A DNA stretch of 64,000 nucleotides from positions 74,287 to 138,286 of the forward strand of contig JBDHTQ010000004.1 of assembly GCA_039808765.1 (NCBI GenBank). Reading direction: 5' to 3'. Made by a program: the position numbers and the translations under genes. This document shows, in pieces, positions 806-57,608 of this stretch (position 1 is the first letter of the stretch; each line of letters opens with the position of its first letter). The DNA is from Bdellovibrionales bacterium (GTDB taxonomy: Bacteria > Pseudomonadota > Alphaproteobacteria > UBA2400). The notes under the pieces were generated by a model. It saw only the letters and a list, made by a program, of their open reading frames with translations, was not told the origin of the DNA and searched no databases.

Positions 806-830
806 AATGAAATCCCTCCTCTAATACTGG

Positions 831-1565: not shown

Positions 1566-1810
1566 ATTTTTACTCCCAACCGCTGGGGACTCGATTTTTT
1601 TGTAAGAGCTCACCCATCTAAATTGCCTAATGCATCTCTCATGCCAGAATAAACTTATGTTGTTTTTCAGTAACTTAATCTGGTTGCTTGCGGGTAAGCG
1701 GCAAAACTTTCCGACAATCACTTGTCGGTTAAGCCTTTTTTGTGGTTAATAGAGATTAAAAGGCGGATCGTTCGTTCTAAAACAGGCAGTTCTAAAAAAC
1801 GGGGTAAAAC

Positions 1811-2398: not shown

Positions 2399-2461
2399 GC
2401 ATGCGGCTTGCATGTGCTATGTGTGGTATTGAACACCTTGATGTGAAAGTGAAGCGCCAGC

Positions 2462-3990: not shown

Positions 3991-3997
3991 GGGAAAA

Positions 3998-35464: not shown

Positions 35465-35467
35465 TCT

Positions 35468-36205
35468 ATGGCGTTTAAGCTTTTCTCCTCTTCCTCTTCT
35501 TCTGCCGTGCGTAAAGACAGCGAGGTTTTTGCCAAGCCTTCCGATATGCTGATGTCTGTGCAGAGTCAGCAGGATTTTTATTCCATCAGCTATCGTTTTC
35601 TGGTTAAGACCTCACTCTTCTTGGGAACAATCGTTATTGTTTTGATTGTACTCTGTTGTGGAATTGTTATTTTTTCGGCGCCGCATGATCGTTTTTTTAC
35701 CGCATCAGTAGATGGGCGGGTTGAGCGCGTGGTGCCCCTCAATATCGCAACCGCACCGACGGCTGAGATGGCGCAAAAAGTGCGAGATCACATTTCACGT
35801 GCGCTTAATTTTGGTTATCTTGACTATGAGCAACGTCGCGCCGAAAATTTATCGCCCTTTACAGCTTCTGCGTTCGAGAAGCTACAGGATCAGACATTGT
35901 TGCCGTTTGGTTTGCGCGACATGCTCAAAAAGATGCTCGTTTTTAAGACGTCACCGTTAAAATCTCCGGGTGTGTCATTGGTTGCCAATAATGTAGATCA
36001 AAACTTTACCATGCAATGGATTTTCGACGTTCCCGTTAAAATTGAGGTGAGTTCGGATGATCCAAGCGTGAAAGATGCTAATCGACAAGATATCGTCGTG
36101 ATTCGTGTTCTTGTGAAGCGTTCGGCTGATATTGACACGCCTGGCGGGTACATCATCTGGGACATTCAGGGGATAAAAATTATTAATCATGGAGGGGCAT
36201 CATGA
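35468..36205 (+). CDS. VirB8/DotI(IcmL)-like bitopic protein, paralogue 2
   Basis: Same architecture (TM segment LFLGTIVIVLIVLCCGIVIF) and a shared motif (LNFGYLDYEQRRAENLSPFTASAF). Confidence 0.4.
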   Translation: MAFKLFSSSSSSAVRKDSEVFAKPSDMLMSVQSQQDFYSISYRFLVKTSLFLGTIVIVLIVLCCGIVIFSAPHDRFFTASVDGRVERVVPLNIATAPTAEMAQKVRDHISRALNFGYLDYEQRRAENLSPFTASAFEKLQDQTLLPFGLRDMLKKMLVFKTSPLKSPGVSLVANNVDQNFTMQWIFDVPVKIEVSSDDPSVKDANRQDIVVIRVLVKRSADIDTPGGYIIWDIQGIKIINHGGAS

Positions 36206-36978
36206 CTGATTTGAGCTCTTCTGCCAAAAAGCCTGCGGATGTCCAAAAGAAAGCATCAGCAAATGCTACGGTAGCGAAAAAGAATTCGGCCCGTACAGCC
36301 GCCGGCAAAAAAGGGACTCAAAAGCCCGCGTCGAAAAGTGGGCTGAAAAAGTTTGTGTTGCGTTTGAAGGAAGCGCTTTACAGCCAAACACTGCAACCTG
36401 CTGATGTCTCGATGCGGCAGACTTTTTTGGCAACCATCGGGGTTGTGATTTTGATTGCGGGTATTTTTGCTTTTGTTTTTGGCAATAAGCGCGCTGATTT
36501 GCTTTTTGCCAGCCATAGCGGAAAGCTAACGCCCATTCAGTATGTTGACACACCAAGTATTAGTAATGAGGCTGTGATCAACTGGGCCATGGCCGCATTT
36601 ATGGATATCAAAAACTTTAATTTTAACAACATTGATGAACGATTTAATAGCGCATATCGTTATTTTACGCCTGAGGGATGGGACTCTTTCGTGGCCGCAC
36701 TCTACAAGAGTGGTATCATTGACGCCATCAAAACCAATAAACAGTACGTGAGCGCTGTTCCAGGAGGGGCACCAATTATGCAGTCCGAAACAGATGATCC
36801 GGGACATTATTCATGGGTTGTACAAATTCCGTATCAAATGACCACGGTTTGGCGTGATAGTAATGGTACCAATCGGGAAAAAACAGATAGTAAAGTCGCG
36901 ACGATTACGGTGGAGAGTATTCCCACAAACACCTCACTGGCGGGTTACCCCTTCGGGATATCAAGGATAAACGAATAA
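36202..36978 (+). CDS. VirB8/DotI(IcmL)-like bitopic protein, paralogue 3
   Basis: Same architecture (TM segment ATIGVVILIAGIFAFVF) and motif (YRYFTPEGWDSF). It overlaps the upstream gene by 4 nt. Confidence 0.4.
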   Translation: MTDLSSSAKKPADVQKKASANATVAKKNSARTAAGKKGTQKPASKSGLKKFVLRLKEALYSQTLQPADVSMRQTFLATIGVVILIAGIFAFVFGNKRADLLFASHSGKLTPIQYVDTPSISNEAVINWAMAAFMDIKNFNFNNIDERFNSAYRYFTPEGWDSFVAALYKSGIIDAIKTNKQYVSAVPGGAPIMQSETDDPGHYSWVVQIPYQMTTVWRDSNGTNREKTDSKVATITVESIPTNTSLAGYPFGISRINE

Positions 36979-37652
36979 TGACTTTTTCAGGAAAACCCGT
37001 GAGCTTGGTTAAAAAAACCGATATTCAGCGTAATCGGCAATCTTATTTCCGGCTAAACAATAATTTCTTGCGTGATCGTGCGCGTTTTATGGTGGTTCTA
37101 AAGTTTCAGCAATATTTGACTGTGATTCTGCTCTGCATTCTCTTTGGCCTGCTTTTTGGGGTTGTCAGTACCAATTATCGGGTTTTTGCGACAAGTAATA
37201 ATGGAACGCTCGTCCCTAACACGCCGATCGATCAGGAAGTACAGGAAAGCGTGTTGATGACATGGGTTGTAACAACGGTTCTGGAAGCTTCAACGATTGG
37301 ATTTTTCGATTATGAGCTAAGGTTTCAGCAGCTTCGAAGTGCATTTACCGATCAGGGATGGGAATCCTACAACCGCTTTTTACGAACAAGTTTTAATAAA
37401 AAAACCTCTATTCGTGCAGAATTGGAAAATGGCCATATTTTGCTGCAACCCAAAATTTCAACCCCGCCACAAATTTTGCGACGTGGGCTGGTGGGGGGGG
37501 TTATGACGTATCATCTTCAGCTTGAGATTGTTATTCGCGGCGTGTGGAGCGAAGATATGCGAATCCCCAAAATACTGGATTTGATTGTTGAAAGGGTGAC
37601 ACCGGAAATAAATTCAGATGGTTTGGCGATCTCACAGTGGAGAATCTCTTAA
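36978..37652 (+). CDS. VirB8/DotI(IcmL)-like bitopic protein, paralogue 4
   Basis: Same architecture (TM segment LTVILLCILFGLLFGVV) and motif (GFFDYELRFQQLRSAFTDQGWESY). Its start overlaps the upstream stop. Confidence 0.4.
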   Translation: MTFSGKPVSLVKKTDIQRNRQSYFRLNNNFLRDRARFMVVLKFQQYLTVILLCILFGLLFGVVSTNYRVFATSNNGTLVPNTPIDQEVQESVLMTWVVTTVLEASTIGFFDYELRFQQLRSAFTDQGWESYNRFLRTSFNKKTSIRAELENGHILLQPKISTPPQILRRGLVGGVMTYHLQLEIVIRGVWSEDMRIPKILDLIVERVTPEINSDGLAISQWRIS

Positions 37653-37778
37653 TTTCTTTGTAGATTGTTAAGAAGTCCTCGTCACAATCGGTTGGTCGAG
37701 CTTAAAGTGTCGCATAAAAGCAACGGCCTGACACTGAGTTTATCTTGAAGGTTTCCTGAGAAAAGTTTAAACCTTATA

Positions 37779-38786
37779 GTGTGTTGTGGAGTGCTTGAGA
37801 TGTTTCAGAAACGGTTTTTTCTCCTTTTGCTTATGGTTGTTGCGCTAGCGAGCAGCGTGGCTCAGCCTGTTTGGGCGTCTTCGAATATGGGGCGAGGGTC
37901 GTCGAGCCAAGGCGGAGATGTTGGTTTGGAAGGTTTTGTTGAGCCACCACAAATCAGTCAGGAAGAAATTCTTAGAAAAGCCAAACAGATGGCGTTTGAT
38001 AACGCTCTGGATGGAGCAATGCCCCTCTCGCCTGAGCAGATTGCGGCTATTATTCAAAAAATGTCAATCGTGCAGGAAGCTGCTGCGCCAGCCATAGCAA
38101 ATCCCGTGCGCCCTAAGCCAGTCCTAAAGGTTGAAACAATTTCGCTTGACCCTGGTACTCAGCCCCCTGTCATCAAGGTGGCTGCGGGCTATGTGACGTC
38201 GGTTATGATTCTTGATGCCACCGGGGCGCCGTGGGAGATTAAAGATATTGCGTATGTTGGCAAATTTAACGCGGCCATTCCCAACAGTGCGCCGCATACG
38301 TTTCGAATTTTGCCCCTTAATCGCTTTTATGAGGGCAACTTGACGCTGCAGTTGGTGGGGCTTGCAACACCTGTTACCTTCCGTCTTGAGGCCGGTGAAG
38401 ATGAGGTTTATTACCGTTATGATGTGCGGTTACCTGTTATTGGTCCCAACGCTAAGGCCCCGCAATTTAAGTCTGCAAACAGCATGGTGGCCGGCGATTC
38501 TGTTATGATGGCGGTTTTGAGCGGTTATCCTCCCGCTTCGTCAAAGCGGTTGCAGGTCTCTGGGCTTGATGATCGTTCGGCGGCTTGGGAGATTAATGGT
38601 CAAATTTTCTTGCGCACACCCCACACCTTGCTTTCGCCTGCGTGGTCTGGCAGCACGACATCGGGGGATGGTACCACAGTTTATGCAATTCCCGATACGC
38701 CTGTGCTGCTTCTGTCAGATCAGGGGGTTATGGTTCGTGCACGCTTAAGTCGCCCTAAAGGTATTGTTGAGGGAGAAGCTCAATGA
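37779..38786 (+). CDS. Secreted VirB9/DotH(IcmK)/TraN-like T4SS outer-membrane-complex protein
   Basis: Sec signal (LLLLMVVALASSVAQPVWA) followed by a beta-rich sequence (VIKVAAGYVTSVMILD..., LTLQLVGLATPVTFRLEAG). Its position between the VirB8-like and VirB10-like genes matches the conserved B8-B9-B10 / dotI-dotH-dotG order. Confidence 0.4.
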   Translation: MCCGVLEMFQKRFFLLLLMVVALASSVAQPVWASSNMGRGSSSQGGDVGLEGFVEPPQISQEEILRKAKQMAFDNALDGAMPLSPEQIAAIIQKMSIVQEAAAPAIANPVRPKPVLKVETISLDPGTQPPVIKVAAGYVTSVMILDATGAPWEIKDIAYVGKFNAAIPNSAPHTFRILPLNRFYEGNLTLQLVGLATPVTFRLEAGEDEVYYRYDVRLPVIGPNAKAPQFKSANSMVAGDSVMMAVLSGYPPASSKRLQVSGLDDRSAAWEINGQIFLRTPHTLLSPAWSGSTTSGDGTTVYAIPDTPVLLLSDQGVMVRARLSRPKGIVEGEAQ

Positions 38787-40120
38787 GTAATACATCCGAT
38801 TTTAATGAAACACCCGGTAATTCTCGTTACCGTCGCCCGAACAAGGCGAGCAGTCTTTCTCAGATGTGGCAAAATCCAATCGTCAAGCTTGTTATCGTTT
38901 TGATGGTTTTGGGTGGGGCTGCTCTGGCTGGAATGAAGTTCCTATCGGGGGGGCGTGATGAACAGGAAACAGTTTTGGCAACGCCTGGTTCTGGCGGTGG
39001 TGCTGCAAAAGTAGGTAACCAAATAACACCCGAGTATCAGTTGGCTGTTCAGCAAAGTGATATTCGTAACGCTGCAGAAGCGCGTGCAACGGGTGATACT
39101 GCTGTGCCAACACCTTTGCAGACTGCTGTATCATCACCAGAAGTTGACACTGACATGAATGCCGCTCAAGGGGAGGATCCCATTCGTCAGTTTGAAGCCA
39201 TTTTGCAGAAGGATGGACAGGGAAAGAAGAGTAATTTGCCTCCTCCACAAACAACGCAGCCGGCTGTTCAGGTTCCGCCTGAAGTTTTAAAGCAGCTTAC
39301 GGAAGCGATGGCTAATCAGATTGGTGCGATGATGAAGACGTGGACACCTCCCACAATGTCTCAGGTTACATCGAACATCAAGGAAGAGGACATTTTGATG
39401 CGCAATACGCCGAAGGAAATTTCGGTCGACAGTTTGAAGCCTCTGACCGAGTCTAAACCGGTTGTGACTGCGGGTAGTGTTTATTATGGGCAGATGATTA
39501 TTGAAGCCAATTCTGACATTCCGGGCCCGATTATGGCGCAAATTCTCACTGGACCTTTGGCCGGAGGGCGTGCAATCGGTCAGTTTCAAACGTTTCGCAA
39601 CCATCTTTTGATTCGCTTTGATACGGTTTCACTTGGCACAAATCAGATGAGCGTGGATATTATCGCCCTTGATCCCAATACTACTCTTGGTGGGATTGCG
39701 AGCGAGGTTGACCCGCGTTACTTCCAACGTGTTTTGCTGCCTGCTGCTGCTGCGTTTATTTCTGAATATGGTCAAGCGCTTTCAGAGCCGACCAGCACGG
39801 TAAGTGTTTCAGGGACGGATGGTACCAACATCTCTACTTCGACCAATGAGCGCGATGCAAAAGATGCGATGTATGCTGGTATTGGTGCTGCATCAGAGAA
39901 GATCGAGCAATTCGTGACAGAAGAAGCATCGTCAATTAAGCGCCTTGTTCGCGTTGGCGTGGGCACGCCAATCGGCATGTTTTTTGTGAAGCCTGTTTGC
40001 GGCTTTAGCGGGCAGTGTAATGCGGGGTCAGCGGTAACGCCTGCTTCTTCGCCTTCCCCTTCCCCCGTATCTGTGAGTGGTGTTGTTTCTCCGACATCGA
40101 CATCTTATATTCAACGTTGA
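38783..40120 (+). CDS. VirB10/TrbI/DotG-family T4SS protein
   Basis: N-terminal TM segment (IVKLVIVLMVLGGAALAGM), then a Pro/Gln-rich linker. The C-terminal domain aligns block-by-block to VirB10/TrbI: AGSVYYGQMIIEANSDIPGPIMAQI, GGRAIGQF, LIRFDTVSLGTNQMSVDIIALDPNTTLGGIASEVDPRYFQRVLLPAAAAFIS. Confidence 0.65.
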   Translation: MSNTSDFNETPGNSRYRRPNKASSLSQMWQNPIVKLVIVLMVLGGAALAGMKFLSGGRDEQETVLATPGSGGGAAKVGNQITPEYQLAVQQSDIRNAAEARATGDTAVPTPLQTAVSSPEVDTDMNAAQGEDPIRQFEAILQKDGQGKKSNLPPPQTTQPAVQVPPEVLKQLTEAMANQIGAMMKTWTPPTMSQVTSNIKEEDILMRNTPKEISVDSLKPLTESKPVVTAGSVYYGQMIIEANSDIPGPIMAQILTGPLAGGRAIGQFQTFRNHLLIRFDTVSLGTNQMSVDIIALDPNTTLGGIASEVDPRYFQRVLLPAAAAFISEYGQALSEPTSTVSVSGTDGTNISTSTNERDAKDAMYAGIGAASEKIEQFVTEEASSIKRLVRVGVGTPIGMFFVKPVCGFSGQCNAGSAVTPASSPSPSPVSVSGVVSPTSTSYIQR

Positions 40121-46273: not shown

Positions 46274-46630
46274 TTTACGTCAAAAAAATTATGTCTTGGG
46301 TCCTTCTGATTGTGGCAAAAGCTTAATACACTTATCCGCGCGTGAGCGAATGCCGTTAATCACCAAAAAAATGTCCCCACTTGCGGCCATTGCCGCATCA
46401 TGGCGGGCAGCGCCATCCCAAATCTGGGCAAGATTGCACACACCGAATGTATAAAAAGAGGCGACCAAGGGTTTTGTCACGACAAATTCTTCAACTTTTG
46501 CTGCAAAATGCCTCATATGTTTGTATATTTTTAAAAAGAATGGTTAAAGAATTGGTGCTCTTGTTACAAGCTAAAAAAAGTTAAGATATAGCAGACGCCG
46601 GTTTACGAAATTCCGTATAAGCAGTTTTGT

Positions 46631-47509
46631 TCATTTACTTTTTTGCTCGTTAAGGTGCGGTAACTGAATGTGAGCAGCACGCAGCGTGTTAGAGAGTAAA
46701 CATGCCACCGTCATTGGGCCAACACCACCGGGCACAGGTGTGATTGCCCTTGCTTTTTCTGCGCATTCAGCAAAGGCTAGATCGCCTATCAGTTTTCCTT
46801 CACCGTTACGGGTGATCCCCACATCAATAAGAATACTTCCCTCTTTTACCCATGAGCCTTTAACCAGTTCAGCCACACCCGTTGCCGTAACAATGATATC
46901 CGCTTGGTGCGCCAAAAGGGCGAGATCACGCGTATGGCGATGGGCAATCGTGACAGTGCATTCCGCTTGATTGAGTAATTCCGCCATCGGGTGTCCCACC
47001 AGTAACGATCGCCCGATCACGAGCGCATTCATTCCCACAAGTGAGGGTTCAACAGTGTGAATAAGCCGCATACATCCTTGTGGCGTGCAGGGCACGAATC
47101 CAGTGGTTTGGTTTTGGGCAAGCAGACCTTGATTCAACGGATGCAGGCCGTCTACATCTTTGCGTGGGTCAATAAGGGGTAAAAAATCATATGCATTCAG
47201 CTCGGGGGGAAGGGGGAGCTGTAAAAGAATCCCATGTACGTCAGGGTTATTGTTGAGAGAAATAATCGCCTGACGCAATTCCTCTGCGGACGTTGCAGGA
47301 TTTAAAAAAACGGGGACTGTATCTATTCCCACGTTTTTACAGGCAGAAATTTTCTTTTGAACATAAATCTGACTGGCCGGGTCATCGCCAACCAAGATCG
47401 TCGCCAGTGTCACCCTCTTGAGACTGATCGCCTCATAGTGTGAGGCTTCTTGCTTTACCTTTTCAAGAAGAATAGACGCGATTGCCTTGCCATCAATAAC
47501 GTGTGCCAT
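46631..47509 (-). CDS. folD: Bifunctional methylenetetrahydrofolate dehydrogenase/cyclohydrolase FolD
   Basis: 292 aa. Conserved blocks: ATILVGDDPASQIYV, HGILLQLPLP, TPQGCMRL, GRSLLVGHPMAELL, PVPGGVGPMTVA. Confidence 0.85.
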   Translation of the reverse strand: MAHVIDGKAIASILLEKVKQEASHYEAISLKRVTLATILVGDDPASQIYVQKKISACKNVGIDTVPVFLNPATSAEELRQAIISLNNNPDVHGILLQLPLPPELNAYDFLPLIDPRKDVDGLHPLNQGLLAQNQTTGFVPCTPQGCMRLIHTVEPSLVGMNALVIGRSLLVGHPMAELLNQAECTVTIAHRHTRDLALLAHQADIIVTATGVAELVKGSWVKEGSILIDVGITRNGEGKLIGDLAFAECAEKARAITPVPGGVGPMTVACLLSNTLRAAHIQLPHLNEQKSK

Positions 47510-47512
47510 GGG

Positions 47513-47812
47513 TTATAAGGGGGTGTGAATAACCAAAGGGACAAGATACCACCACAAACACTGACGTATAAACTCAATGAGCAAAATTAAGATGACCGGA
47601 GAAATATCAATCCCGCTAATTGGAGGGATTTTACGACGAATAGGTTTTAAAAGTGGCTCGGTAAGTGAGATACAAAAACGATAAATTGTTCGCACCAATT
47701 CGTTATGTCCATTGATGACATTAAAGGTGAGAAGAAGGTTTAAAAGAACGGCAATAATCAGTACCCACGAATAGAGGTTCAGAAGAGTATTAATAAGGTT
47801 GATAAATGGCAT
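47513..47812 (-). CDS. YggT-family small membrane protein
   Basis: 99 aa with two TM helices and the proline-containing loop characteristic of YggT/Ycf19. It sits next to folD. Confidence 0.45.
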   Translation of the reverse strand: MPFINLINTLLNLYSWVLIIAVLLNLLLTFNVINGHNELVRTIYRFCISLTEPLLKPIRRKIPPISGIDISPVILILLIEFIRQCLWWYLVPLVIHTPL

Positions 47813-47913
47813 CGTGTATTCTCCCCGGGATCAAGGTAGCAGGTTGTAAAAAAGAGGCAAGTACAGCTTGACAGATGCGGCCCAAATCGGCCAATCTCCG
47901 CACTGCAAACAGT

Positions 47914-47989
47914 GGGGCAATAGCTCAGTTGGTAGAGCGCTACATTCGCATTGTAGAGGTCGGGAGTTCGACTCTCCTTTGCTCCACCA
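47914..47989 (+). tRNA. tRNA-Ala (anticodon CGC)
   Basis: Cloverleaf folded by hand. The acceptor stem GGGGCAA/TTGCTCC carries the Ala identity pair G3:U70. D-arm GCTC-AGTTGGTA-GAGC; anticodon arm CTACA-TTCGCAT-TGTAG (anticodon CGC); T-arm GGGAG-TTCGACT-CTCCT; discriminator A; encoded CCA. Confidence 0.8.
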
Positions 47990-48145
47990 TTCCGTCTGGC
48001 CGGTCAGGCCTTTTTGCATATATCCCCTGCTTTTGTCCCGATTGAGGGGGTATTTCGCCACCACCGGGTCGGGGAGAGCGGACTTTCGGTCCTTAATCGG
48101 CCTCTTCGGGCTAGAATTCTCCGTTTCAGATTGTGTCCGACCCGC
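47958..48145 (+). repeat. Direct repeat copy 1 (attL-like). It covers the 3' 32 nt of tRNA-Ala plus about 155 nt downstream.
   Basis: About 190 bp that recurs with roughly 93% identity at 54279-54470. The two copies bracket a 6.3-kb insert. Confidence 0.6.
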
Positions 48146-48292
48146 GAGCGTATATGTGGCAGAATTATTCAAAATCACTTTGCGAAATGTGATCGACGCT
48201 CGCCGCGCGCGATTTATTTTAATACCGCCAATCACATCGCCTTACGCCCGGACATCTTCATATTCCTAGAGGCAAGTTTCACTACCTAATTT

Positions 48293-49300
48293 TTAAAGTT
48301 CTGGGAACATCACATCTGCCATATATGCTGCCACATTACGGGGTCGGCCGATGGCGGGCATGTGGTGCATGGCGAGACCGGGGTTGGCATTAATCTCGAT
48401 GATCGCATGGGTAACCGTAGTCTGATCGACGGTAATGTCCGGAGTAAGAAAATCGATCCCTACACAGGGAAGACCATCGAATGTCTGCAGTGCTCTTTTT
48501 GCAATGCTCAACACCGAGGAATGAATCACATCTGTCATGTCCGTTGATACGCCGCCTTGAGCTAGATTAGAAATGAGTCGCAGATAGATTTTTTCACCTT
48601 TATTCGGGACGTGATCAAAGTTCAGGCCCTTCTGCTGCAGGTAATTCAGCACGATATCGTCGAGGGCTATGGGGCAGAGGGCACTACCCTCTTTCTTTTT
48701 GACAGACTCCCGCCGGAGACTTTCCTGCTCAGCTAGAGCTCGGATATTGTTTTTGCCGTCACCTATTACATGCGCGGGATCGCGAAGTAGAACTGCGTAG
48801 TCTCCCTTGGTGGTGATGAAGATGCGGTACTCGTTGCCGTGAATATGCCGTTCGACGATAAAGAAAGATTGCTCTCCTGCCTGATGGAGAAGGGCGTAAA
48901 TTGCATCCTGCAGCTGTTCTCTGTTTTCGAGGCCGGAGCGAACTAACTCGCCATGCGAGCCGGTATTCGGTTTGACCACAAGCGGGAAGCCGATTTCGTC
49001 GCCATAATTCAGCGCTGCCTCGATATCGCCGCCCGTGAAGATTCGTCCCTCGGGCACATACAGCCCACTCTCTTCCAGAAGTAATTTAGCCGTGTGTTTG
49101 TCCGCCGCTAACGAGGACGGCAGATAAGGCACGATTTTGCTAGCCCGGTCGAGCAGATACTCAGTCGTTCCTTTATAAGACACCCGCATAAGCTCGAGAT
49201 TGTAGTCGAGCGAAGTGACATTCGCCCCGCGGCGCACGAGTTCTTCAACCAGGAGACGCTGATTGGTATGAAGACAGCTGAGATCAAGTGTACTCGTCAC
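48293..49300 (-). CDS. ATP-grasp ligase (RimK / LysX / graspetide-ligase-like)
   Basis: 335 aa with a GTG start. ATP-grasp blocks present: FPLVVKPNTGSHGELV, HIHGNEYRIF, IIEINANPG. Confidence 0.65.
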   Translation of the reverse strand: MTSTLDLSCLHTNQRLLVEELVRRGANVTSLDYNLELMRVSYKGTTEYLLDRASKIVPYLPSSLAADKHTAKLLLEESGLYVPEGRIFTGGDIEAALNYGDEIGFPLVVKPNTGSHGELVRSGLENREQLQDAIYALLHQAGEQSFFIVERHIHGNEYRIFITTKGDYAVLLRDPAHVIGDGKNNIRALAEQESLRRESVKKKEGSALCPIALDDIVLNYLQQKGLNFDHVPNKGEKIYLRLISNLAQGGVSTDMTDVIHSSVLSIAKRALQTFDGLPCVGIDFLTPDITVDQTTVTHAIIEINANPGLAMHHMPAIGRPRNVAAYMADVMFPEL

Positions 49301-49417
49301 TTACTGCGGACGAGGCCGACCAGTGACGGGACGCGGATCAACGTCAAGTTTGCGCGGCGAACGGCCACGGGCAGGTCGGCTGCGATAATTTTCAGTCGGA
49401 TTATTATCTTCAGACAT
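49301..49417 (-). CDS. Candidate 38-aa Pro/Arg-rich peptide gene (possible RiPP precursor/substrate), below the 60-aa ORF-track cutoff
   Basis: Translated by hand: MSEDNNPTENYRSRPARGRSPRKLDVDPRPVTGRPRPQ*. An SD-like GAGGTG lies 5 nt upstream of the ATG. The TAA stop abuts the GTG start of the ATP-grasp gene, and the ORF fills the gap between the methyltransferase and ATP-grasp genes. Confidence 0.4.
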   Translation of the reverse strand: MSEDNNPTENYRSRPARGRSPRKLDVDPRPVTGRPRPQ

Positions 49418-49476
49418 TTGGCACCTCACTCTACAGGCAATTCTAGCATCTGGCAAACGGGTTTTGCAAGCAGAAA

Positions 49477-50154
49477 TTATCCTTCAAAAATAAGCACGTT
49501 ATGACCGATTTCAGCAGTGTTAACTTTTTGGCCGACCGCTTCGCCCCATATACCGCCGATGATGTGGCGAGCATGGGTAATATCCCTGAACTGAAAGCTC
49601 GTTGCCAGCCGGGCGGTGATCCGAAAGCCGGCTACGTCCTGAAGCCAGGCGTTATAAGCGATTGAAACGGGGATTTTTTCTCTTATCTCTTCAAACATGC
49701 CGCTGGCATCGTTCTCAACCAGAAAAATTCTACCGCCGGGATGTAAAGAGGCGCGGACGCAGTTCAGAATATCTAGTCGCTTCGGCTCACTGCTAATGGT
49801 ACCAAGCATCCAGCAGGCGAGCGCGATATCGTATTTTCCGAGGTTGGGATTTTCAGCAGCATCGGCGTGAATGAATGAGATGTTTCTAAAGTTTCGGGTC
49901 TGCGCCCGCGCTATCGTCAGCTGCGCCTCAGCAGCGTCTAGCCCACAGATATGCTGCGCATGGGGAGCAAAAAGTCTTAGATATTTTCCGGTGCCGCAGC
50001 CGAGATCAAGCATGGTCTTGTTTTCGATGTGGGGTAATAGCCAATTAAAGACCTGGCCTCGGGCATCTTCAGCTGCGCAAAACTCTTCATAAAGATTGGC
50101 CTTCTGGTAATAGACTTCTGATTTTTCTTGAAGGTTGTTCTTGGAATAGCTCAT
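49477..50154 (-). CDS. Class I SAM-dependent methyltransferase (start trimmed to MSYSKNN, an ATGA overlap with the upstream stop)
   Basis: SAM-binding motif I LDLGCGTGKYL plus a motif II/III acidic loop. Length about 225 aa. Confidence 0.65.
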   Translation of the reverse strand: MSYSKNNLQEKSEVYYQKANLYEEFCAAEDARGQVFNWLLPHIENKTMLDLGCGTGKYLRLFAPHAQHICGLDAAEAQLTIARAQTRNFRNISFIHADAAENPNLGKYDIALACWMLGTISSEPKRLDILNCVRASLHPGGRIFLVENDASGMFEEIREKIPVSIAYNAWLQDVAGFRITARLATSFQFRDITHARHIIGGIWGEAVGQKVNTAEIGHNVLIFEG

Positions 50155-52565
50155 GCTTTCTTTTCCCATAGCAGAATGATGTCTTTGTTGTTGTCTTCCC
50201 ACGCGCTTTGAATCTCGATTTCCGTGTAAACGCCGTCGGCGTAATGACCGAAAGCTTTATGGCGAGCTTCCGAGTCGTTGATCCGGCTGCGCACGTTTGA
50301 TCCATTCATGTTGTAGGCGTCAAAGACGTAGCCGAGAATCATCTGACCGCCGGGCCGAAGGCGTTTAGCCATTGGCGTAACGATCTTCGACCGGAACTCT
50401 TCAAGATAATCACTGTCATACATGTGGTGCGCGTAATCGCTGAGGTTGGAGAGGAGGATGGTGTCGTAGCTGTCTTCCGTCTGTGCCATCTCTTCAGCTG
50501 TAAGGGTATTCCATTTCACCTCTAGCTTATGGCAAGCCGTCTGTGCTTTTGCATAGGCATCTATATTGGCGAGATAGGGATTGTTGAGAGCAATCCGCTC
50601 GCCTGACTGCTGTTTGCGGAACAAAGCCGAATGGCGCATAGCTGAGCCATCCATGTTGAAGAATTTGTAGGCGCTATCAAAGAAGTATCTGGCAGAAAGA
50701 CTTAATCCATCCCTGCAGATTTGATATCTATCGTGCTCCATAAGCAAGAGGAAATTCTGGAACTCTGAAATTCCGAAAGTATGGAGAGCTGCCAGCTTGA
50801 GTTCAGCCATATATTTTGCAAGCAGGTTGACGTCAAAATTTACAACGCTCTTCGCCCCAGCCATACAGACGTTGATCAATTGATCGCCCGATGCACCGAC
50901 GGTCAGGACGTCCTTGCCAGAAAAGTCGAGAAAGTTAAGATACCCGCCGATATTCTCTGTTGCGAAGGCATAGACAGGGCTCGCCTTTGAATAGCGCCCT
51001 CCGCGCTGAAGATTGGCGATCAGATCGCCTTCGAACAAGGAAGCGATGAATTCGGCCTCGGCAAATTGGGGAACGATTTGCATCGGGCAGCGATCAAGTC
51101 CTGATCGGGTAAGGCCAGTCACTAAATGCCGGAATGAAGTGTTCTCACGGTCCTCAAGAATTTCCCGTAGGGTGTGATCATGTAGCGTCTTTTCTGCGAT
51201 ATAAGTCGGGCGGCGCTCCGCCACCCACGTGCAGGGTGAAATACGCCCTTTATGGTCGATAAAGAGGAACCGCTCTCCACCAGGGCAGGCGCCGCAGCCC
51301 TCCTTCACCGTTTCGGCGAAGTTGCCGTTGACTTTGATGCGGCCCGAGAATTCCGCGCGAAGCGCCTCGATCTCAGCCTTCATTTCGCTGATGGGACGGT
51401 CACACAACATGGCTGGACGGTTGCGCATGCGTCCGACCGGTTCCATCAGGGAATAAATCACCTCATTGCAACCAAGCTCAAAACAGAATTCGGTGATTGC
51501 CCGCATTTCGTTCTGATTGTTCCGGTAAAGAACGCAACCAATACGCACATAAATTCCGTTGTCTACAAGATGTTTTAAGCCATTAATCGTCGGTGTATAA
51601 GTTCGCTTTCCACGTATTGCTTCCTGCAGCTCTTGCGTATGCCCGTCGAGGCTGACATGAACCATATCAAGCTTCAGAGAAGCTAGTTCCTGCACCACCT
51701 CTGCCGTGATGAAGGCGGCGTTTGTCGAGAGGTCCGTTCGGAAGTTCTGCTGGCGAGCATACTTCAGAATATCCATAAGATCGGGTCGCGTAAACGGCTC
51801 GCCCCCCGTGATCTTGAGATGCGTGAACCCGCATTCCTTCAGACCATCGATTGTCTCGTAAATTTTGGCCGTGGAAAGTTCATCGGCCTGCGGGCGCGAG
51901 GTCGAGCTGAAAATGCAGTAACGGCAGCCGTAGTTGCAGGTATTAGTTATTTCCCAGATGACTCGGCCGCCATGGCGGGGAATGCGGAAGAGGCAGAACG
52001 ACGTTGCAGGATCGTAATCATCGGCGCAGAGTTCATAGGCTTTCTCTATATTATCGTCGATCAACCCAGCGGTTGTATCCACAAGTTGATATGGTTTGCC
52101 ATATTGTTCAAGAAGAGTGATTATCTCTGACGTTGGCATTTGCCTCTTTAAGCGCGCATCAATCTGCGCGTTCGAAAGATCTCCGCCTTGGAGGCGCGCC
52201 ATGCGCTCAATATCATTGCAATGCACGACGATGACACCGTCGACCATATCGAGATATCCATCCTCGATAAGTCGCGCCCATTCTAGGACGACAAGACCTT
52301 CCGCAGCCTGGACTTGCCGTTGCGCCTCGGTGCGCGTAGACTCGCTTACTTTCTCCCACAAAGCCTCAAAATGATCGGGGTCGGAGCCACCGATAGTGCG
52401 GCGTATCGTGTCGATGGAAACAAGAGTGGCTCCCACTTTTTTGACCAGACGATCCGCCAGCGTCGTTTTTCCCGCTCCCATGCCGCCCGTAATGCCGATG
52501 ACGCGTGAGGCCATTCTAATATTCCCAGCCAAGGCCATAGCGCAGCGGGCAGAGCGACACGACAT
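50151..52565 (-). CDS. Three-part fusion protein: a P-loop kinase-like N-terminus (dephospho-CoA-kinase-like), a radical SAM core with a SPASM/twitch-like Cys-rich extension, and a C-terminal domain of unknown function
   Basis: The N-terminal VIGITGGMGAGKTTLADRL is a CoaE/AAA-kinase P-loop. The radical-SAM cluster motif is TNTCNYGCRYCIF (CxxxCxxC). An auxiliary Cys region follows (CGACPGG...ISPCTW). A further roughly 280-aa domain brings the total to 804 aa. Confidence 0.55.
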   Translation of the reverse strand: MSCRSARCAMALAGNIRMASRVIGITGGMGAGKTTLADRLVKKVGATLVSIDTIRRTIGGSDPDHFEALWEKVSESTRTEAQRQVQAAEGLVVLEWARLIEDGYLDMVDGVIVVHCNDIERMARLQGGDLSNAQIDARLKRQMPTSEIITLLEQYGKPYQLVDTTAGLIDDNIEKAYELCADDYDPATSFCLFRIPRHGGRVIWEITNTCNYGCRYCIFSSTSRPQADELSTAKIYETIDGLKECGFTHLKITGGEPFTRPDLMDILKYARQQNFRTDLSTNAAFITAEVVQELASLKLDMVHVSLDGHTQELQEAIRGKRTYTPTINGLKHLVDNGIYVRIGCVLYRNNQNEMRAITEFCFELGCNEVIYSLMEPVGRMRNRPAMLCDRPISEMKAEIEALRAEFSGRIKVNGNFAETVKEGCGACPGGERFLFIDHKGRISPCTWVAERRPTYIAEKTLHDHTLREILEDRENTSFRHLVTGLTRSGLDRCPMQIVPQFAEAEFIASLFEGDLIANLQRGGRYSKASPVYAFATENIGGYLNFLDFSGKDVLTVGASGDQLINVCMAGAKSVVNFDVNLLAKYMAELKLAALHTFGISEFQNFLLLMEHDRYQICRDGLSLSARYFFDSAYKFFNMDGSAMRHSALFRKQQSGERIALNNPYLANIDAYAKAQTACHKLEVKWNTLTAEEMAQTEDSYDTILLSNLSDYAHHMYDSDYLEEFRSKIVTPMAKRLRPGGQMILGYVFDAYNMNGSNVRSRINDSEARHKAFGHYADGVYTEIEIQSAWEDNNKDIILLWEKKA

Positions 52566-53910
52566 TCATATTTGGTGTGCGGTACCGAAGTGCCTCCACG
52601 TTCATAAATTCATCCGGGTGGCGGACCACAGCATAGCCACCCCCGCTCAGTTCTGCTGCGATGCCCTCGACGGCTTCGCGCACCCGCTCGGAGCTTACCT
52701 TGGCTAGGTTCTGGTTCTGCATGCCCTGATGAATGTATTGCGTCGAAGGAATGTCGGAATAATCCTCATAAATTCTGCTACCCATGCGGATGGCCAGATG
52801 GTGCAGCCGCACTTCTTCAGTGCGAAGTTCCAGAATGAGATCGGCCGTGCGTTGGAGTTCATCCTCAGTTGATCCGGGCAGATCCATGATCCAGCTTGTC
52901 CGCACGCGGAAACCCATCTCTCGTGTGCGATTCACGATGCGGCGCACATCGTCCGCATTGACCTTCTTGTGGATAGAGTTTAGAAGCCGATCATCGCCGG
53001 ATTCGACGCCATAGTGGATCCAGCGGAATCCCGCCTCATGCATGGTTTCCATCATCTCTTCTTCGAACAGGTTGAGCGAGCCGAGGCACCCCATTGCGAC
53101 TTTTATCTTGCGCGCGATAAGTTCTTCGCAGATATCCTTCATACGTTTGCGTCCGACGGTTGCGTTATCGTCGAGGAACAAAATTTTCTTCGCGCCGCAT
53201 TCATTGACGAGATACTCAATCTCATTTGCGATGGCTCCAGCACTGCGTCCGCGCCAGTTGCCCCAGAATCCGGGGACATGGCAGAAATCGCATTTCATGT
53301 GGCATCCACGGCTGGAAAGGATGGTACGTACATCGATATAGGCATCAAGGTCAACGAGGCTGCGTTTAGCGATGGGAAGCGTGTCGAGATCGAACGGCTG
53401 GCTTGGGCGATCCGTGACGTGAATGTCTAGACTTCCGTCCAGATAGCAAATCCCCGGTATTTGCTTGAGCGAATTCTGAGACCATGTTGGTACCGCAAGT
53501 AGCGCGCTCAGAGCCAGCTCCATCTCATGCCGTATCAGAACATCTACAGGCGTCCCGCTGAAAAGAAGCTGCTCAGGCTTATAGGTCGCCGTTTTCCCAC
53601 CAACGATGACCTTTGCCCCCCGCGCCCTAGCCTGATCAGCGATGTTCCGAACAGCCTCAAGCGTCCCATCGCAATGAAGAGGGATGTGATAATCATAGAT
53701 GATAATGGCGATATCATATGCAAAATCGGTCATATGATTTTTGAAATCTTCCGGTCGGATCTGGCGGACATCCATATCCAACAGTCGCACTTCATGGCCG
53801 AGCACCGCGACAAAGGATGCCGTAACCAAAACATCGATTGGCTCGATCAGGATACCCTTGGAACTGAACGGCACATTTGGCGGATTGATGATCAATGCCT
53901 TCATTTCCAA
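52516..53910 (-). CDS. B12-binding-domain radical SAM protein (class B rSAM)
   Basis: An N-terminal Rossmann-like B12-binding region (MKALIINPP...) is followed by SSRGCHMKCDFCHV (CxxxCxxC) and a TIM-barrel radical-SAM core. Length 464 aa. Confidence 0.7.
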   Translation of the reverse strand: MEMKALIINPPNVPFSSKGILIEPIDVLVTASFVAVLGHEVRLLDMDVRQIRPEDFKNHMTDFAYDIAIIIYDYHIPLHCDGTLEAVRNIADQARARGAKVIVGGKTATYKPEQLLFSGTPVDVLIRHEMELALSALLAVPTWSQNSLKQIPGICYLDGSLDIHVTDRPSQPFDLDTLPIAKRSLVDLDAYIDVRTILSSRGCHMKCDFCHVPGFWGNWRGRSAGAIANEIEYLVNECGAKKILFLDDNATVGRKRMKDICEELIARKIKVAMGCLGSLNLFEEEMMETMHEAGFRWIHYGVESGDDRLLNSIHKKVNADDVRRIVNRTREMGFRVRTSWIMDLPGSTEDELQRTADLILELRTEEVRLHHLAIRMGSRIYEDYSDIPSTQYIHQGMQNQNLAKVSSERVREAVEGIAAELSGGGYAVVRHPDEFMNVEALRYRTPNMNVVSLCPLRYGLGWEY

Positions 53911-54278
53911 ATGTTTACCTCAATTCTTAAAAGATGGGGCAGACTAACATATCTCTCTTCGAGAAATCCACTTTAATATATTGAACTCAAGCCTTGTTTT
54001 CTGGCCTCGCGTCCGAACCTACGGACCTCCAAAATAGCCATCATTTACCCCGGTTAAGGTATAGCACCGAGTGCTATTAACATCAAGGTAGTATACCTGT
54101 GTGTTTGGGTCATTCTGAGATCAGGTTTCTCACCTGAATCTCTCCCTTGCAGAGGAGAGTCCTGCAATCGGTATCCTGCATCGTTGCAGAGCAACATTTC
54201 TGTTATGAAATGACATAATATCAGCTGGTTAGGCCATATCATGACAGGAATTAGCCATGGTTGGGCATATAGTTGCTG

Positions 54279-54470
54279 GTCGGACCGGGAGTTCGACTCT
54301 CCTTTGCTCCACCATTCCGTCAGGGCGGTCAGGCCATTTTGCATATATCCCCTGCTTTTTCCCCGATTGAGGGGGTATTTCGCCACCACCGGGTCGGGGA
54401 GAGCGAACTTCCCGCCCTTAATCGGCCTCTTCGGGCTAGAATTCTCCGTTTCAGATTGTGTCCGACCCGA
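54279..54470 (+). repeat. Direct repeat copy 2 (attR-like). It consists of the tRNA-Ala 3' fragment plus the downstream segment.
   Basis: It matches 47958-48145, including GGGAGTTCGACTCTCCTTTGCTCCACCA. Only the 3' end of the tRNA is duplicated, as expected for a tRNA-targeted insertion. Confidence 0.6.
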
Positions 54471-54735
54471 TAGACCGTTATTGGGCTGCATCAAAGCTAA
54501 GCGTATGGCGCTGTTCCTGCCACATGAGAGAAAGGGGTTTGCTGACCAGCTTTTCTTTGCTCAGGCCGTCCGGCTGCTTGCCAGCGAGGATATCCTTGTT
54601 GTTAATAATGATCCCATCATCTGCTGAAACTACAGCTGAAACTACAGATGCTGACAGCCAAACGAGCAGCGTTTTTAGCTTGGTAGTTTCTGTCGGGGTA
54701 TGCAAGAATGACGAGATAAAAATAGGTAGGTTATC

Positions 54736-55479
54736 TTGGAAAGAATTGCCTGCGATAGAGAAATGATTACCCTGCCTCCAGCGCATGAGTTTGCGAAGTT
54801 GGAGACGAAGGTGTTTCGCACACTTAAAGATGCACACTTGGCAATGCGTGATATTGAGGAGCTGCCATTTTTTAAAATGTCCGATGAAAAGTTGCGGCCT
54901 GATATTAGAAAGGTAGTAAAAGTAATTCTAGATTTGACGCCCGAGCTAGTTAAGTTTGTCCAAGCGCAGTTTGACAGCAAAATTCTACATTTGTCGCTTG
55001 GCGGGTCGGCTGTTTTTAGGAGCAACCCAGCTGACTTGGATTTTAATTTAATCGTTAGTGGGTCTCATTTTTCATATCGGGAATATGCTTTTAGTCAAAT
55101 TGGGATACGAGGCGCGCCGCAAGATATCCTTGATCAATTTTCTTTTATTGCGTTTGGCGCAGATAATCTCGCTGGCACTGCTGCATGTGAGGATAGTATT
55201 TTAAACAAAGGATATTTGCACCAAGACATCATAAGCAGAGAGTTGATAATTTATGATATGCGGAATTTGCTTCTCTACGGACATCCAGTCACGGTTTCTC
55301 CAGGAGTAGACTTGATACTGAAGCGTGTGATGACTGGTATTGGCTTTGCTCGCCGGGGGCTTACAGGAGAGGTCGTGCGCTACACGACTCCAGAGAGAAA
55401 AATAAGAAAAGCTGTTTCAAGAATTGAAGAGGCGGAAGCTATCATCAAGGAGCTTATTCGCCGTGGTGCATCAGGCTAA
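54736..55479 (+). CDS. Nucleotidyltransferase-fold (Pol-beta superfamily) protein of unknown function
   Basis: hG[GS]x9-13Dh[DE]h signature present: HLSLGGSAVFRSNPADLDFNLIV. Length 247 aa (the start may be at MITLPPAH). Confidence 0.35.
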   Translation: MERIACDREMITLPPAHEFAKLETKVFRTLKDAHLAMRDIEELPFFKMSDEKLRPDIRKVVKVILDLTPELVKFVQAQFDSKILHLSLGGSAVFRSNPADLDFNLIVSGSHFSYREYAFSQIGIRGAPQDILDQFSFIAFGADNLAGTAACEDSILNKGYLHQDIISRELIIYDMRNLLLYGHPVTVSPGVDLILKRVMTGIGFARRGLTGEVVRYTTPERKIRKAVSRIEEAEAIIKELIRRGASG

Positions 55480-56543
55480 CAGGCCGGCCCCTTGCTTTTA
55501 ATACTGGCTATTGATTGTTCGATTACAACTGACATATCGCTGGAATTAATAGCTGATAACCTGTTGTAGAGAGTTGCCAAGACTGATTGATCTTTCTGAA
55601 AGCGCAAACCCATCCTTCTGGAATAGGTCAGTAGTTCTTTTTGTCTTGAAGAGTAGCTCCAGTTTTTGCCATCAAGACTAAGTAGCGAAAGCAAGCGAAG
55701 AATTTCTGGCTCACTGACTATGCTTCGGATAGCAGGATCTGCGAGCACCTCATTTGCAGGCATCTTTGACAGCCCAATATAGCCGAGTGGTGGTAAGCTT
55801 AGATTCCGGAATCCAAAATTGAATGGTGCGACCTTATTAAGAGTGCCAAGTCCAACAAACGCCCACGCGCGATCATGAGACAGCTTCTCAGCTAGGTATA
55901 TGGGAAATAGGGCATTGCTCACTCTAGGGTCAAGTTTAAGGTCATTTAAGCCAATTGAATTGAGTGGAACTCCGGTCTTTCTCTTTTTGCTAATGAGAGC
56001 TTGCTGCGGCATAGAGGCAAGCTGACCTGACCAGTTAGATGGTTTGTTGATAATAGGCAGATATAGTGATAATTCATTTGCATGATGGGCGAGCGGCATA
56101 CTTAAAATATTGCGCGTTTGATGAGCGGGGGTGATTGGTTTTCCGCAGTTCGCGCAATCAACGGGTGCAGGCGCTGTAGCAAAGGCCTGAGGGCCGTCAC
56201 AGCTGCTACAAACTAGAATTTTTTGCTGGCTGAGGGTGATCGTACCACTCTCAATCGCGCGCATGAGTTGAACTCCCACCCAACTATGAAAAGCTGGATC
56301 GTTATCAAAGTAATGAGGCTTGTCTTTGCTGTACATGCTATAAGCACGCAGTGTGTCTTCATAGCGCTTAAAGGGATCATCAATTCCGGTTTTAAGTCCG
56401 GTATTCCACAGAGCGTGGCCAGTTAGTCCCGGGATATGTAATTCGTTAAAAATATCAGTTAGTACAACAGGGAGCAGTCTCCCTGGAGCAGAGATGGATA
56501 AGTTAGCCATTCCCACTGGCGAGGTTGTTATTATGGTTTTCAT
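55476..56543 (-). CDS. Hypothetical protein with a C-x2-C...C-x2-C zinc-ribbon-like segment
   Basis: 355 aa. The segment LVCSSCDGPQAFATAPAPVDCANCGKP suggests a Zn ribbon. There are weak class-I-synthetase-like hints (HIPG...GH, LSKM) but no confident family. The gene is AT-rich. Confidence 0.3.
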   Translation of the reverse strand: MKTIITTSPVGMANLSISAPGRLLPVVLTDIFNELHIPGLTGHALWNTGLKTGIDDPFKRYEDTLRAYSMYSKDKPHYFDNDPAFHSWVGVQLMRAIESGTITLSQQKILVCSSCDGPQAFATAPAPVDCANCGKPITPAHQTRNILSMPLAHHANELSLYLPIINKPSNWSGQLASMPQQALISKKRKTGVPLNSIGLNDLKLDPRVSNALFPIYLAEKLSHDRAWAFVGLGTLNKVAPFNFGFRNLSLPPLGYIGLSKMPANEVLADPAIRSIVSEPEILRLLSLLSLDGKNWSYSSRQKELLTYSRRMGLRFQKDQSVLATLYNRLSAINSSDMSVVIEQSIASIKSKGPAC

Positions 56544-56623
56544 TATGCCCCCATGGATTTTTAATCACATTTAAGTGAGCAAGGTCAACGTTGAATTGTA
56601 GGTGGCCATCCGTTTTTGTATGA

Positions 56624-57547
56624 TCATAACTTAATAAATCTGGAGATTTCTAATTTAAGTAATTTGTCCTGTAGTGGGCTGCCATGTCCATAATCGGGCA
56701 CGATGAACAGTTTTGAGTTATTCATCGCTTTATGAAGAGCCCACGCCTGCTCAGGCGGGCAGACAAAATCGAGGCGATTATGAACAATGAGAGTGTGTTT
56801 ATCTTTGATGATGTCGATGTTATCCAGAATTTGGTTGTCACAGAGGAAGAAATTTTCTTTTTCATAATGCATACGAATCCTGAAATTATCTAGATGTGCG
56901 CCACTGGGTTCGTTCTGGCTAATTTCTGGCGATAGGCTGCCAAGTTCATGCTCATAGCTGCCGTATTTGTTCAGTGCTGAGATGCATTGTTGTTTGTCAC
57001 CTGATAATGCTAGAGCGGCGTAATATTGCTGTGCGTTCGTATTTTTCGGCAGATTAGATGTAACGTTCTCCATAAGGTCAGGATAGAAGCGACCAGAATC
57101 GTGTGCGATCCAATCAATGTCCACGCGACGGGCAAGAAAAGCTTGGGTGATAATGATCTTATTGACCAGCGCTGGGTAAGTTTCTGCAAAGACTAAAGCG
57201 AGCGTTGCGCCCCACGAACAGCCGTAAATTACTGCGTGATCAATGTTGAGCTTATCAAGAAGCCTTTTTGCATCGTGAACGGTATGTTGTGTTGTGTTTT
57301 CCTCTAATTTGCCGGTTGGTAGCGATTTTCCGCGACCACGTTGATCGAACATTATGATACGACAGACATTCAAATTAAAAGCATTTGCATGTTTTGGTTT
57401 GCTAAAAGAGCCAGGGCCACCATGAAAGGAGAGAATTGGCAGTCCATTTGGATTCCCAAACTCATGAAAGTAGACCAAATGTCCATCCTCTTCGGGAAGA
57501 TAGCCTGTATTGAACGGTTTGTGTTCTCTGCTTATAAAGGTAAACAT
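56624..57547 (-). CDS. Alpha/beta hydrolase, proline-iminopeptidase-like
   Basis: HGGPGS oxyanion motif and the nucleophile elbow GCSWG. The N-terminus (YLPEEDGHLVYFHEFGNPNGLPILSFHGGPG) matches the prolyl aminopeptidase family. Confidence 0.6.
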   Translation of the reverse strand: MFTFISREHKPFNTGYLPEEDGHLVYFHEFGNPNGLPILSFHGGPGSFSKPKHANAFNLNVCRIIMFDQRGRGKSLPTGKLEENTTQHTVHDAKRLLDKLNIDHAVIYGCSWGATLALVFAETYPALVNKIIITQAFLARRVDIDWIAHDSGRFYPDLMENVTSNLPKNTNAQQYYAALALSGDKQQCISALNKYGSYEHELGSLSPEISQNEPSGAHLDNFRIRMHYEKENFFLCDNQILDNIDIIKDKHTLIVHNRLDFVCPPEQAWALHKAMNNSKLFIVPDYGHGSPLQDKLLKLEISRFIKL

Positions 57548-57608
57548 GGATTATTCCAATATTATAGTACGATGAAGAAATATACTAACGACGATGAAAA
57601 AGTCAAAG

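Follow-up and report, generated by a model that had tools for sequence, protein, structure and literature searches.

We analysed a 64-kb stretch of DNA from a Bdellovibrionales bacterium (hereafter the window, whose coordinates are used throughout), in which a tRNA-Ala(CGC) gene is followed by a long direct repeat pair enclosing a cluster of radical-SAM and ATP-grasp genes. The intact tRNA gene lies on the plus strand at 47914-47989 (ARAGORN; Rfam RF00005, 68.3 bits) and anchors what we read as an array of genomic islands. It adjoins yggT and folD, as it does in four fetched loci (L082, L085, L089, and L094). The single repeat pair comprises a left copy (47961-48144) and a right copy (54286-54469), both on the plus strand, which align over 184 nt with nine mismatches and no gaps (175/184 identical, 95.1%; repeat search and MAFFT). 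A sequence-only reading of this DNA had described a repeat of about 190 bp at ~93% identity, and its coordinates and description proved right. The first base of the repeat corresponds to tRNA position 48, on the 5' edge of the T-stem, and the repeat contains the 29 nt of the tRNA 3' end (positions 48-76) plus exactly 155 nt past the CCA, confirming that the duplication is much longer than its tRNA part. At 54286-54314, the 29 nt match the 3' end of tRNA-Ala(CGC) without a difference, and the locus accordingly has the boundary of a tRNA island, with an intact tRNA on one side, a partial 3' copy on the other, and direct repeats.

The repeat is confined to these two copies. Two of its sub-sequences, of 28 and 32 nt, are each present exactly twice in the window, where chance would yield none. 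No third copy of its last 91 nt was found in the window with a covariance model, and blastn, pattern search and the covariance model revealed no third decayed copy or further distal arm there. All nine differences between the copies fall within repeat positions 37-130, leaving the first 36 nt and the last 54 nt unchanged; by our own estimate, the probability of such clustering under a uniform spread is about 0.002. An assembly artefact is an unlikely source of the repeat, as the copies differ at nine positions and each has unique flanks.

The insertion measures 6,325 bp, namely 6,141 bp of unique DNA and one repeat. Its G+C content is 49-56%, compared with 43-50% to the left of the insert and 41-47% to the right. 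A non-coding spacer (48145-48292), for which blastn against all fetched loci gave no homologue, is followed by four genes spanning 48293-53910, all on the minus strand and overlapping or closely spaced. Gene 1 (52516-53910) encodes a B12-binding radical SAM enzyme (Pfam B12-binding and Radical_SAM), and gene 2 (50151-52565) a fusion of a CoaE-like kinase, a radical SAM/SPASM domain and DUF3419 (Pfam). Gene 3 (49477-50202) encodes a class I SAM-dependent methyltransferase (Pfam Methyltransf_25, Methyltransf_12, Methyltransf_23). Gene 4 (48293-49300) encodes an ATP-grasp ligase resembling the ATP-grasp part of cyanophycin synthetase or GshAB (Pfam and NCBIfam, below curated cut-offs); NCBIfam gave no match reaching its curated cut-off for any of the four genes. 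The product of gene 2 has a 100% identical protein on record (P0001) and orthologues at 54-64% identity. At the far side, a non-coding arm (54122-54285; blastn against L084 and motif search) abuts the partial tRNA and ends in GGTCGGAC.

The same four-gene order occurs in three unrelated metagenomic contigs (L081, L092, and L093) at 62-68% nucleotide identity, inside larger biosynthetic clusters. Judged by this shared gene order, the set at 48293-53910 appears to be a conserved module of an uncharacterised biosynthetic pathway. No repeats, arms, tRNA or recombinase accompany it in the contexts of those three contigs, and the cluster is therefore regarded as passenger cargo in the window. Elsewhere, the set is joined to genes for a PhyH dioxygenase, a glycosyltransferase and an AAA_33 kinase. 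As the sequence-only reading had stated, the insert lacks an integrase: none was detected by Pfam analysis of all four genes or by tblastn with the family recombinase described below. Likewise, no recombinase, DUF2924 or DUF3489 was found between 48145 and 54285 (Pfam and NCBIfam on the four genes, tblastn with those proteins), and no integrase domain occurs among open reading frames (ORFs) of at least 150 aa across the 64 kb. The element thus has no integrase inside it, which a tRNA-anchored island would be expected to carry.

Related loci preserve the uninterrupted site. The closest relative of the window's FolD, at 78% identity, is encoded on the Logan contig L082, which is syntenic on both sides: metK, an SDR gene, folD, yggT and tRNA-Ala(CGC) are followed by one copy of the 155-nt segment and then by the right flank of the window, with no insert. 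The metagenomic locus L087 has the same arrangement of tRNA, single 155-nt segment and recombinase remnant; the remnant is a stub in L082 and the C-terminal 270 aa in L087. As an arbiter of which window copy is the resident one, L082 is uninformative, its informative sites being split 3 versus 4. In a FolD scan of a species-representative genome collection, no hit exceeded 53% identity. A metagenome scan with a 22-mer from mid-segment gave no hits, nor did two viral-contig scans; the best-conserved 28-mer of the segment identified four metagenomic loci.

A feature absent from the sequence-only reading lies immediately beyond the right repeat copy. The last 35-37 codons of a large serine recombinase gene remain on the minus strand at 54481-54591 (tblastn), with the stop codon at 54478-54480, 8 nt past the repeat end. 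In a tblastn search with the 563-aa recombinase of L086, residues 527-561 match window positions 54591-54487 at 71% identity (E = 4e-9). L082 carries the same kind of stub. The L086 enzyme is full length, contains Resolvase and Recombinase domains, and is preceded by DUF2924 and DUF3489 genes, an arrangement also present in L088, L089, L090, and L094. Resolvase (PF00239) and Recombinase (PF07508) domains were found at the island edge in L086, L088, L089, L090, L094, L096, and L098; the window stub corresponds to a C-terminal piece outside both domains. Cargo varies by locus and includes helicase/DUF1156 genes, type I restriction-modification and Piwi genes, and heavy-metal ATPases. In L084, the recombinase frame is interrupted at about 1610-1630, giving two minus-strand ORFs (1630-1860 and 767-1609); either the gene is a pseudogene with a frameshift, or this low-coverage contig contains a sequencing error.

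The position of this gene relative to tRNA genes is consistent across the family. Wherever sequence on that side exists, the recombinase gene ends 165-290 nt from a tRNA gene, the two 3' ends facing each other, and five tRNA species are involved (Ala-CGC, Ala-UGC, Lys-CUU, Lys-UUU, and Gln-UUG). Distant homologues have the same geometry beside tRNA-Ala(UGC) in L096, tRNA-Gln(UUG) on a Sphingobium chromid and tRNA-Lys(UUU) on a Ralstonia megaplasmid, and inspection by eye of their spacers revealed short motifs such as GGGTATTTC and TTCTCC..GTT. This placement, converging on tRNA genes, suggests that the serine recombinase is the integrase of these islands. Large serine integrases of phages or of integrative conjugative elements (ICEs), such as Bxb1 (PMC1470463), similarly combine Resolvase and Recombinase domains and are encoded at the edge of foreign DNA. 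However, their attachment sites are shorter than 50 bp and lie mostly in protein-coding genes, whereas in the family described here a conserved, possibly structured spacer separates the gene from a tRNA 3' end at a distance of 165-290 nt. In a survey from 2020, serine integrases used tRNA genes in 4.9% of cases, a rare usage that the survey described as not reported before and still in need of proof (PMC7192596).

The same figures lend some appeal to a more conventional origin, in which an ordinary tyrosine-integrase island at the tRNA had an unusually long attL/attR identity block and later lost its integrase, the serine stub being unrelated debris. Tyrosine integrases use tRNA genes in 44.5% of cases against the 4.9% for serine integrases (PMC7192596), T-arm sublocations are classic targets, and, where the target site lies inside a gene, elements that replace the 3' part of that gene are known to share blocks as long as about 250 bp with it (PMC10111431). 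As in those blocks, the repeat here is much longer than a crossover core, starts inside the tRNA and restores the gene. In contrast, 155 of its 184 nt are located outside the gene, which can be restored without them, and we read the identity as homology between two elements rather than between element and host target. Phage HP1 of Haemophilus is a tyrosine-integrase case with about 180 bp of shared sequence. We nevertheless consider this origin very unlikely for the window: a Phage_integrase domain was found neither in the window nor in the tRNA-adjacent DNA of any related locus, the tRNA has a serine recombinase gene as its neighbour in every lineage and at five tRNA species, and the 155 nt co-occur with the serine recombinase gene.

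The 155-nt segment itself had been viewed by the sequence-only reading as a possible functional, structured element downstream of the host tRNA-Ala gene. Its assignment to the host tRNA-Ala locus did not hold. In L090 and L091, the segment follows tRNA-Lys(CUU), with the recombinase on its other side, and in all cases it adjoins a recombinase gene or stub. Furthermore, it is 86% identical between the window and L085 but 79% between the window and L082, even though the L082 host is closer. Its occurrence after tRNA-Lys(CUU) and its closer match to L085 than to L082 indicate that the module belongs to the element and not to the host locus. Between locus pairs, the segment is 72-94% identical, compared with 49-73% at third codon positions of the recombinase, and its last 33 nt reach 85-100%. 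By this comparison, the 155-nt stretch appears to be a functional conserved non-coding element rather than neutral spacer, and most plausibly part of the attachment end of the element.

The evidence for a structure in this module is mixed. Directly after the tRNA, a GGCC-GGTCA-GGCC hairpin with a T-run (47994-48015, plus strand; terminator scan) opens the segment, as the sequence-only reading had noted, and the other GC-rich stems it named are present in the sequence. The hairpin is terminator-like in the left copy only: three of the nine substitutions weaken the stem and T-run in the right copy, so that only the copy joined to the live tRNA keeps it. RNAalifold predicts this hairpin as well as a fold of the last 80 nt of the module (left copy 48065-48144, plus strand), in which a closing helix CGGGTCGG/CCGACCCG and a second helix GGAGAA/TTCTCC surround an inner hairpin. 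A covariance model scored 105.6 bits on the left copy of this 80-nt unit, which ends at a fixed junction, ...GTGTCCGACCCG, and 105.7 bits over 54385-54475 in the right copy. Pair counts on 9-10 homologues, the same sequences from which the structure was derived, gave 93.8-95.5% of cells paired and 4-6 pairs changed on both sides, compared with 1.7-1.8 in shuffles (0-1 of 500 reaching the observed value) and 0-3 in slid controls. Covariation support for the fold is therefore modest and at most suggestive. Individual copies folded no better than shuffles on either strand (z-scores -0.2 to -0.8), and the minimum-energy folds differ between the two copies. Compensatory changes between the window copies, which had been proposed as a check, are lacking: in the inner hairpin, the left and right copies differ by two U-G to C-G changes that keep the pairs and by one broken pair, and no pair differs on both sides. 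A search of 47000-55500 against Rfam at E values up to 1 gave no match in the 155 nt past the CCA; the only matches were the tRNA itself and two far below threshold, Plastid-ycf2 antisense to the tRNA and tmRNA at 12.7 bits on the displaced tRNA fragment. The idea of a functional structured element is supported by conservation and, modestly, by covariation, while single-copy folding and Rfam do not support it.

These data also bear on the idea that the segment is a host small RNA or tRNA trailer, copied along with the tRNA 3' end in a local rearrangement and linked with islands only incidentally. Conservation above that of third codon positions, the modest covariation for the plus-strand fold and the presence of G-U pairs that favour the tRNA strand would fit such an RNA. 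Against this, the segment also occurs after tRNA-Lys(CUU) and in every case adjoins the recombinase gene or a stub of it, similarity among its copies does not follow the relatedness of the hosts, Rfam and single-sequence folding give no support, and a terminator stands between the tRNA promoter and the folded part. We regard a host RNA as the least credible of the explanations considered.

Two junctions delimit the module and its neighbours. On the tRNA side, the right copy of the window and L084 share the same left junction, at which a homologous non-coding arm meets a tRNA 3' fragment at position 48. The arms are 70% identical over 166 nt, and a blastn alignment of 391 nt at 81% identity takes in the last 85 nt of the arm and continues through the repeat. 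L084 has the order arm, partial tRNA, 155 nt and recombinase, and the cargo behind its arm is a Fic gene as opposed to the radical-SAM cluster of the window. Such an arm/partial-tRNA junction is what attP, or a seam between two tandem elements, would look like. The arm-terminal 8-mer GGTCGGAC occurs four times in the window, compared with 0.75 expected, and three of these occurrences lie at repeat edges: 54278-54285 (plus), 54460-54467 (minus), and 48135-48142 (minus). Its exact inverse stands 2 nt from the end of each repeat copy; the right copy is therefore flanked by an inverted pair of the motif, and a third occurrence marks the left copy's end. Sites of this type may be recombinase binding sites. 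Related motifs are GGGTCGG, which forms part of the module's closing helix, and GGTCGG, found inside the tRNA.

At the opposite boundary, six types of unrelated DNA adjoin the module precisely at its terminal ...GACCCG: the 3' end of the recombinase gene, an ORF of 371 aa (L085 and L086), a DUF3800 gene in L088, another DUF3800 gene in L090, a 5.5-kb nine-gene block in L094, and the radical-SAM element of the window. Where cargo intervenes between module and recombinase (L085 610-1725, L086 12252-13367, L088 11687-12340, L090 11628-11993, and L094 11635-17197, the last including ThiF and Multi_ubiq genes), it always begins right after ...GTGTCCGACCCG, and in the loci checked (L085/L086 and L088) it replaces the last 7-13 recombinase codons. 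The position looks like a fixed cargo slot. Inspection by eye revealed no convincing dyad symmetry around the ...GACCCG junction.

Taken together, we consider it probable, though well short of certain, that two decayed genomic islands of a single family lie in tandem at the 3' end of tRNA-Ala(CGC). Intact members, seen in related loci, consist, from the tRNA outward, of a tRNA 3' end, the ~155-nt module, a converging large serine recombinase gene, a DUF2924 gene, a DUF3489 gene and variable cargo, the module being composed of the tRNA terminator hairpin followed by the 80-nt inverted-repeat or stem-loop unit. The older member, E1 (54286 onward, now the region to the right of the repeat), would have integrated at the tRNA, supplying a new tRNA 3' end together with its own 155-nt module, and would then have decayed until only the last 35 recombinase codons were kept. 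The newer member, E2 (47961-54285), carrying the radical-SAM/ATP-grasp cluster, would have recombined into the tRNA T-arm rebuilt by E1, displacing E1's tRNA 3' end and 155-nt module by 6.3 kb in the downstream direction. The left and right repeat copies would thus be the tRNA-proximal ends of E2 and E1, respectively, that is, homologous ends of two related elements rather than an oversized target duplication. Placement of the crossover within the T-arm is inferred from two junctions, those of the right copy and of L084. E2, with both putative cis-acting ends (184 nt proximal and a distal attachment arm of ~164 nt) and no recombinase, would resemble a cis-mobilizable element (CIME), moved by a recombinase that has since been deleted or was supplied in trans. 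Most likely, then, the repeat reflects a familiar process, in which elements integrate one after another at a tRNA hotspot and decay, rather than a new kind of element.

Precedents for this process are available. Because attB is restored upon integration, tandem arrays arise (PMC7192596); in Prochlorococcus islands, repeated integration has left behind partial tRNAs and pieces of integrase genes (bioRxiv 10.1101/2020.12.28.424599); and CIMEs keep their attachment sites without an integrase (PMC6323972). Tandem arrays of integrative genetic elements at one tRNA, as catalogued by TIGER/Islander (PMC7192596), and the tycheposon islands of Prochlorococcus (bioRxiv 10.1101/2020.12.28.424599) share with our locus an intact tRNA at one end, partial copies between units, a newer unit beside the tRNA with the older one pushed inward, integrase fragments and variable cargo. 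In contrast to these systems, the repeated block here is 184 nt, each unit carries a conserved 155-nt non-coding module past the tRNA end, the recombinase is a large serine enzyme with DUF2924/DUF3489 rather than a tyrosine integrase, and neither unit has a working recombinase. The CIMEs of streptococcal ICE systems (PMC6323972) are likewise bounded by attL-/attR-like sites, carry cargo without integration or transfer genes, and stand in tandem with a related element. In E2, the putative 184-nt proximal end and 164-nt distal arm bracket cargo only, and both ends are homologous to ends in other loci. However, the neighbouring "helper" is dead, keeping 35 recombinase codons, with no other copy in the window; no conjugation genes lie nearby, and the recombinase family and target are different.

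Several observations weigh against a two-element array. E2 retains no trace of a recombinase, and the E1 recombinase is already a stub in L082, which lacks E2, leaving no visible enzyme for the insertion of E2. An overlap of 2 bp is normally all that serine integrases need, and their association with tRNA genes is rare (PMC7192596). Each window copy has the other as its closest relative (94-95% identity, compared with 72-86% to other members), which also fits a duplication within the lineage or gene conversion. The exact ...GACCCG junction may mark a second recombination point, for which tandem accretion does not account. Furthermore, the far end of a single family island, with an arm and a displaced tRNA fragment, was found neither in the window nor in 10-kb flanks nor in 49 kb of the Sphingobium locus; the displaced fragment was sought at the far end in L089, L094, L096, L097, and 49 kb of the Sphingobium chromid. 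Finally, as discussed below, homologous recombination would give the same product wherever in the 184 nt the crossover fell.

The region to the right of the repeat, which we call region R (54470-60587; blastn, windowed identity, and Pfam) and interpret as the remnant of E1, contains orphan genes, an alpha/beta hydrolase gene and a sulfotransferase gene. Its comparison with L082 points to a recent exchange. Identity to L082 is 100% in the tRNA 3' end, 78.6% in the 155 nt and 72% at 54470-54537, and then 97.5-99.9% at 54538-60587 (L082 1-6050); on the left flank it is 74-94% over aligned genes (folD, yggT, and metK) and about 59% with large gaps at 46274-46630. The jump at 54538 is abrupt and lies inside the recombinase stub, indicating that region R was recently exchanged between two diverged lineages. 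This exchange probably occurred by homologous recombination, with one crossover in conserved recombinase sequence, and it fits a locus that acts as an exchange hotspot.

A similar event might have delivered E2, an alternative that the sequence-only reading had raised. A circular DNA carrying the cargo and a copy of the 184 nt, for example an element excised in a sister strain, could have entered by a RecA-mediated single crossover of the Campbell type, with no site-specific enzyme acting here. The insert has no recombinase and only the stub lies beside it, 184 nt at 95% identity is sufficient for RecA, and the change in identity to L082 within the stub, from 72% to over 99%, documents a neighbouring exchange. 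Homologous recombination is also listed, next to re-integration at a reconstituted attB, as a possible source of observed tandem integrated copies (PMC12884075). On the other hand, the junction between arm and partial tRNA at position 48 still needs a site-specific event and recurs in L084 with different cargo. We assign this route a minor share of the probability, and it would alter only the last step of the two-element array described above.

A broader reading goes further than the array, and we put it forward as a speculative proposal that is doubtful in its full extent. A clade of serine recombinases with DUF2924/DUF3489 would integrate islands into tRNA genes of alpha- and betaproteobacteria; every island would carry a conserved, structured ~155-nt module that would rebuild the tRNA 3' end and terminator, hold recombinase-related GGTCGG(AC) sites and end in a second fixed recombination point, ...GTGTCCGACCCG, at which unrelated cargo is swapped, and units without a recombinase, the radical-SAM cluster of the window among them, would be captured and moved in trans. 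The less familiar details of the locus are indeed this tRNA-tied serine-recombinase clade (at least five tRNA genes), the conserved 155-nt module and the fixed cargo junction. If confirmed, the clade would extend the serine-integrase toolbox to enzymes that target tRNA genes, and would account for the movement of defence systems, metal resistance genes and a radical-SAM/ATP-grasp pathway among alphaproteobacteria, one such host being the bacterium of the window, which also has Dot/Icm secretion genes.

The remainder of the window provides some context for this host. Further inside the flexible region, 58600-63000 has low G+C content (33-42%) and ORFs of 209-484 aa without a Pfam match, and it looks like foreign or fast-evolving DNA. 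Dot/Icm type IVB genes lie at 34736-40120, comprising four tandem DotI/IcmL paralogues, DotH/IcmK and a TrbI/DotG-like gene, and a prepilin peptidase gene is located at 33905-34681. The Dot/Icm genes, together with the many ORFs without a Pfam match, suggest a host-associated alphaproteobacterium, and the orphan genes to the right of the tRNA could be effectors. Flagellar genes at 20-4795 and 15865-17208, encoding FlgF/FlgG-like rod proteins, FliL, FliM and a FliI-type ATPase, represent ordinary core content.

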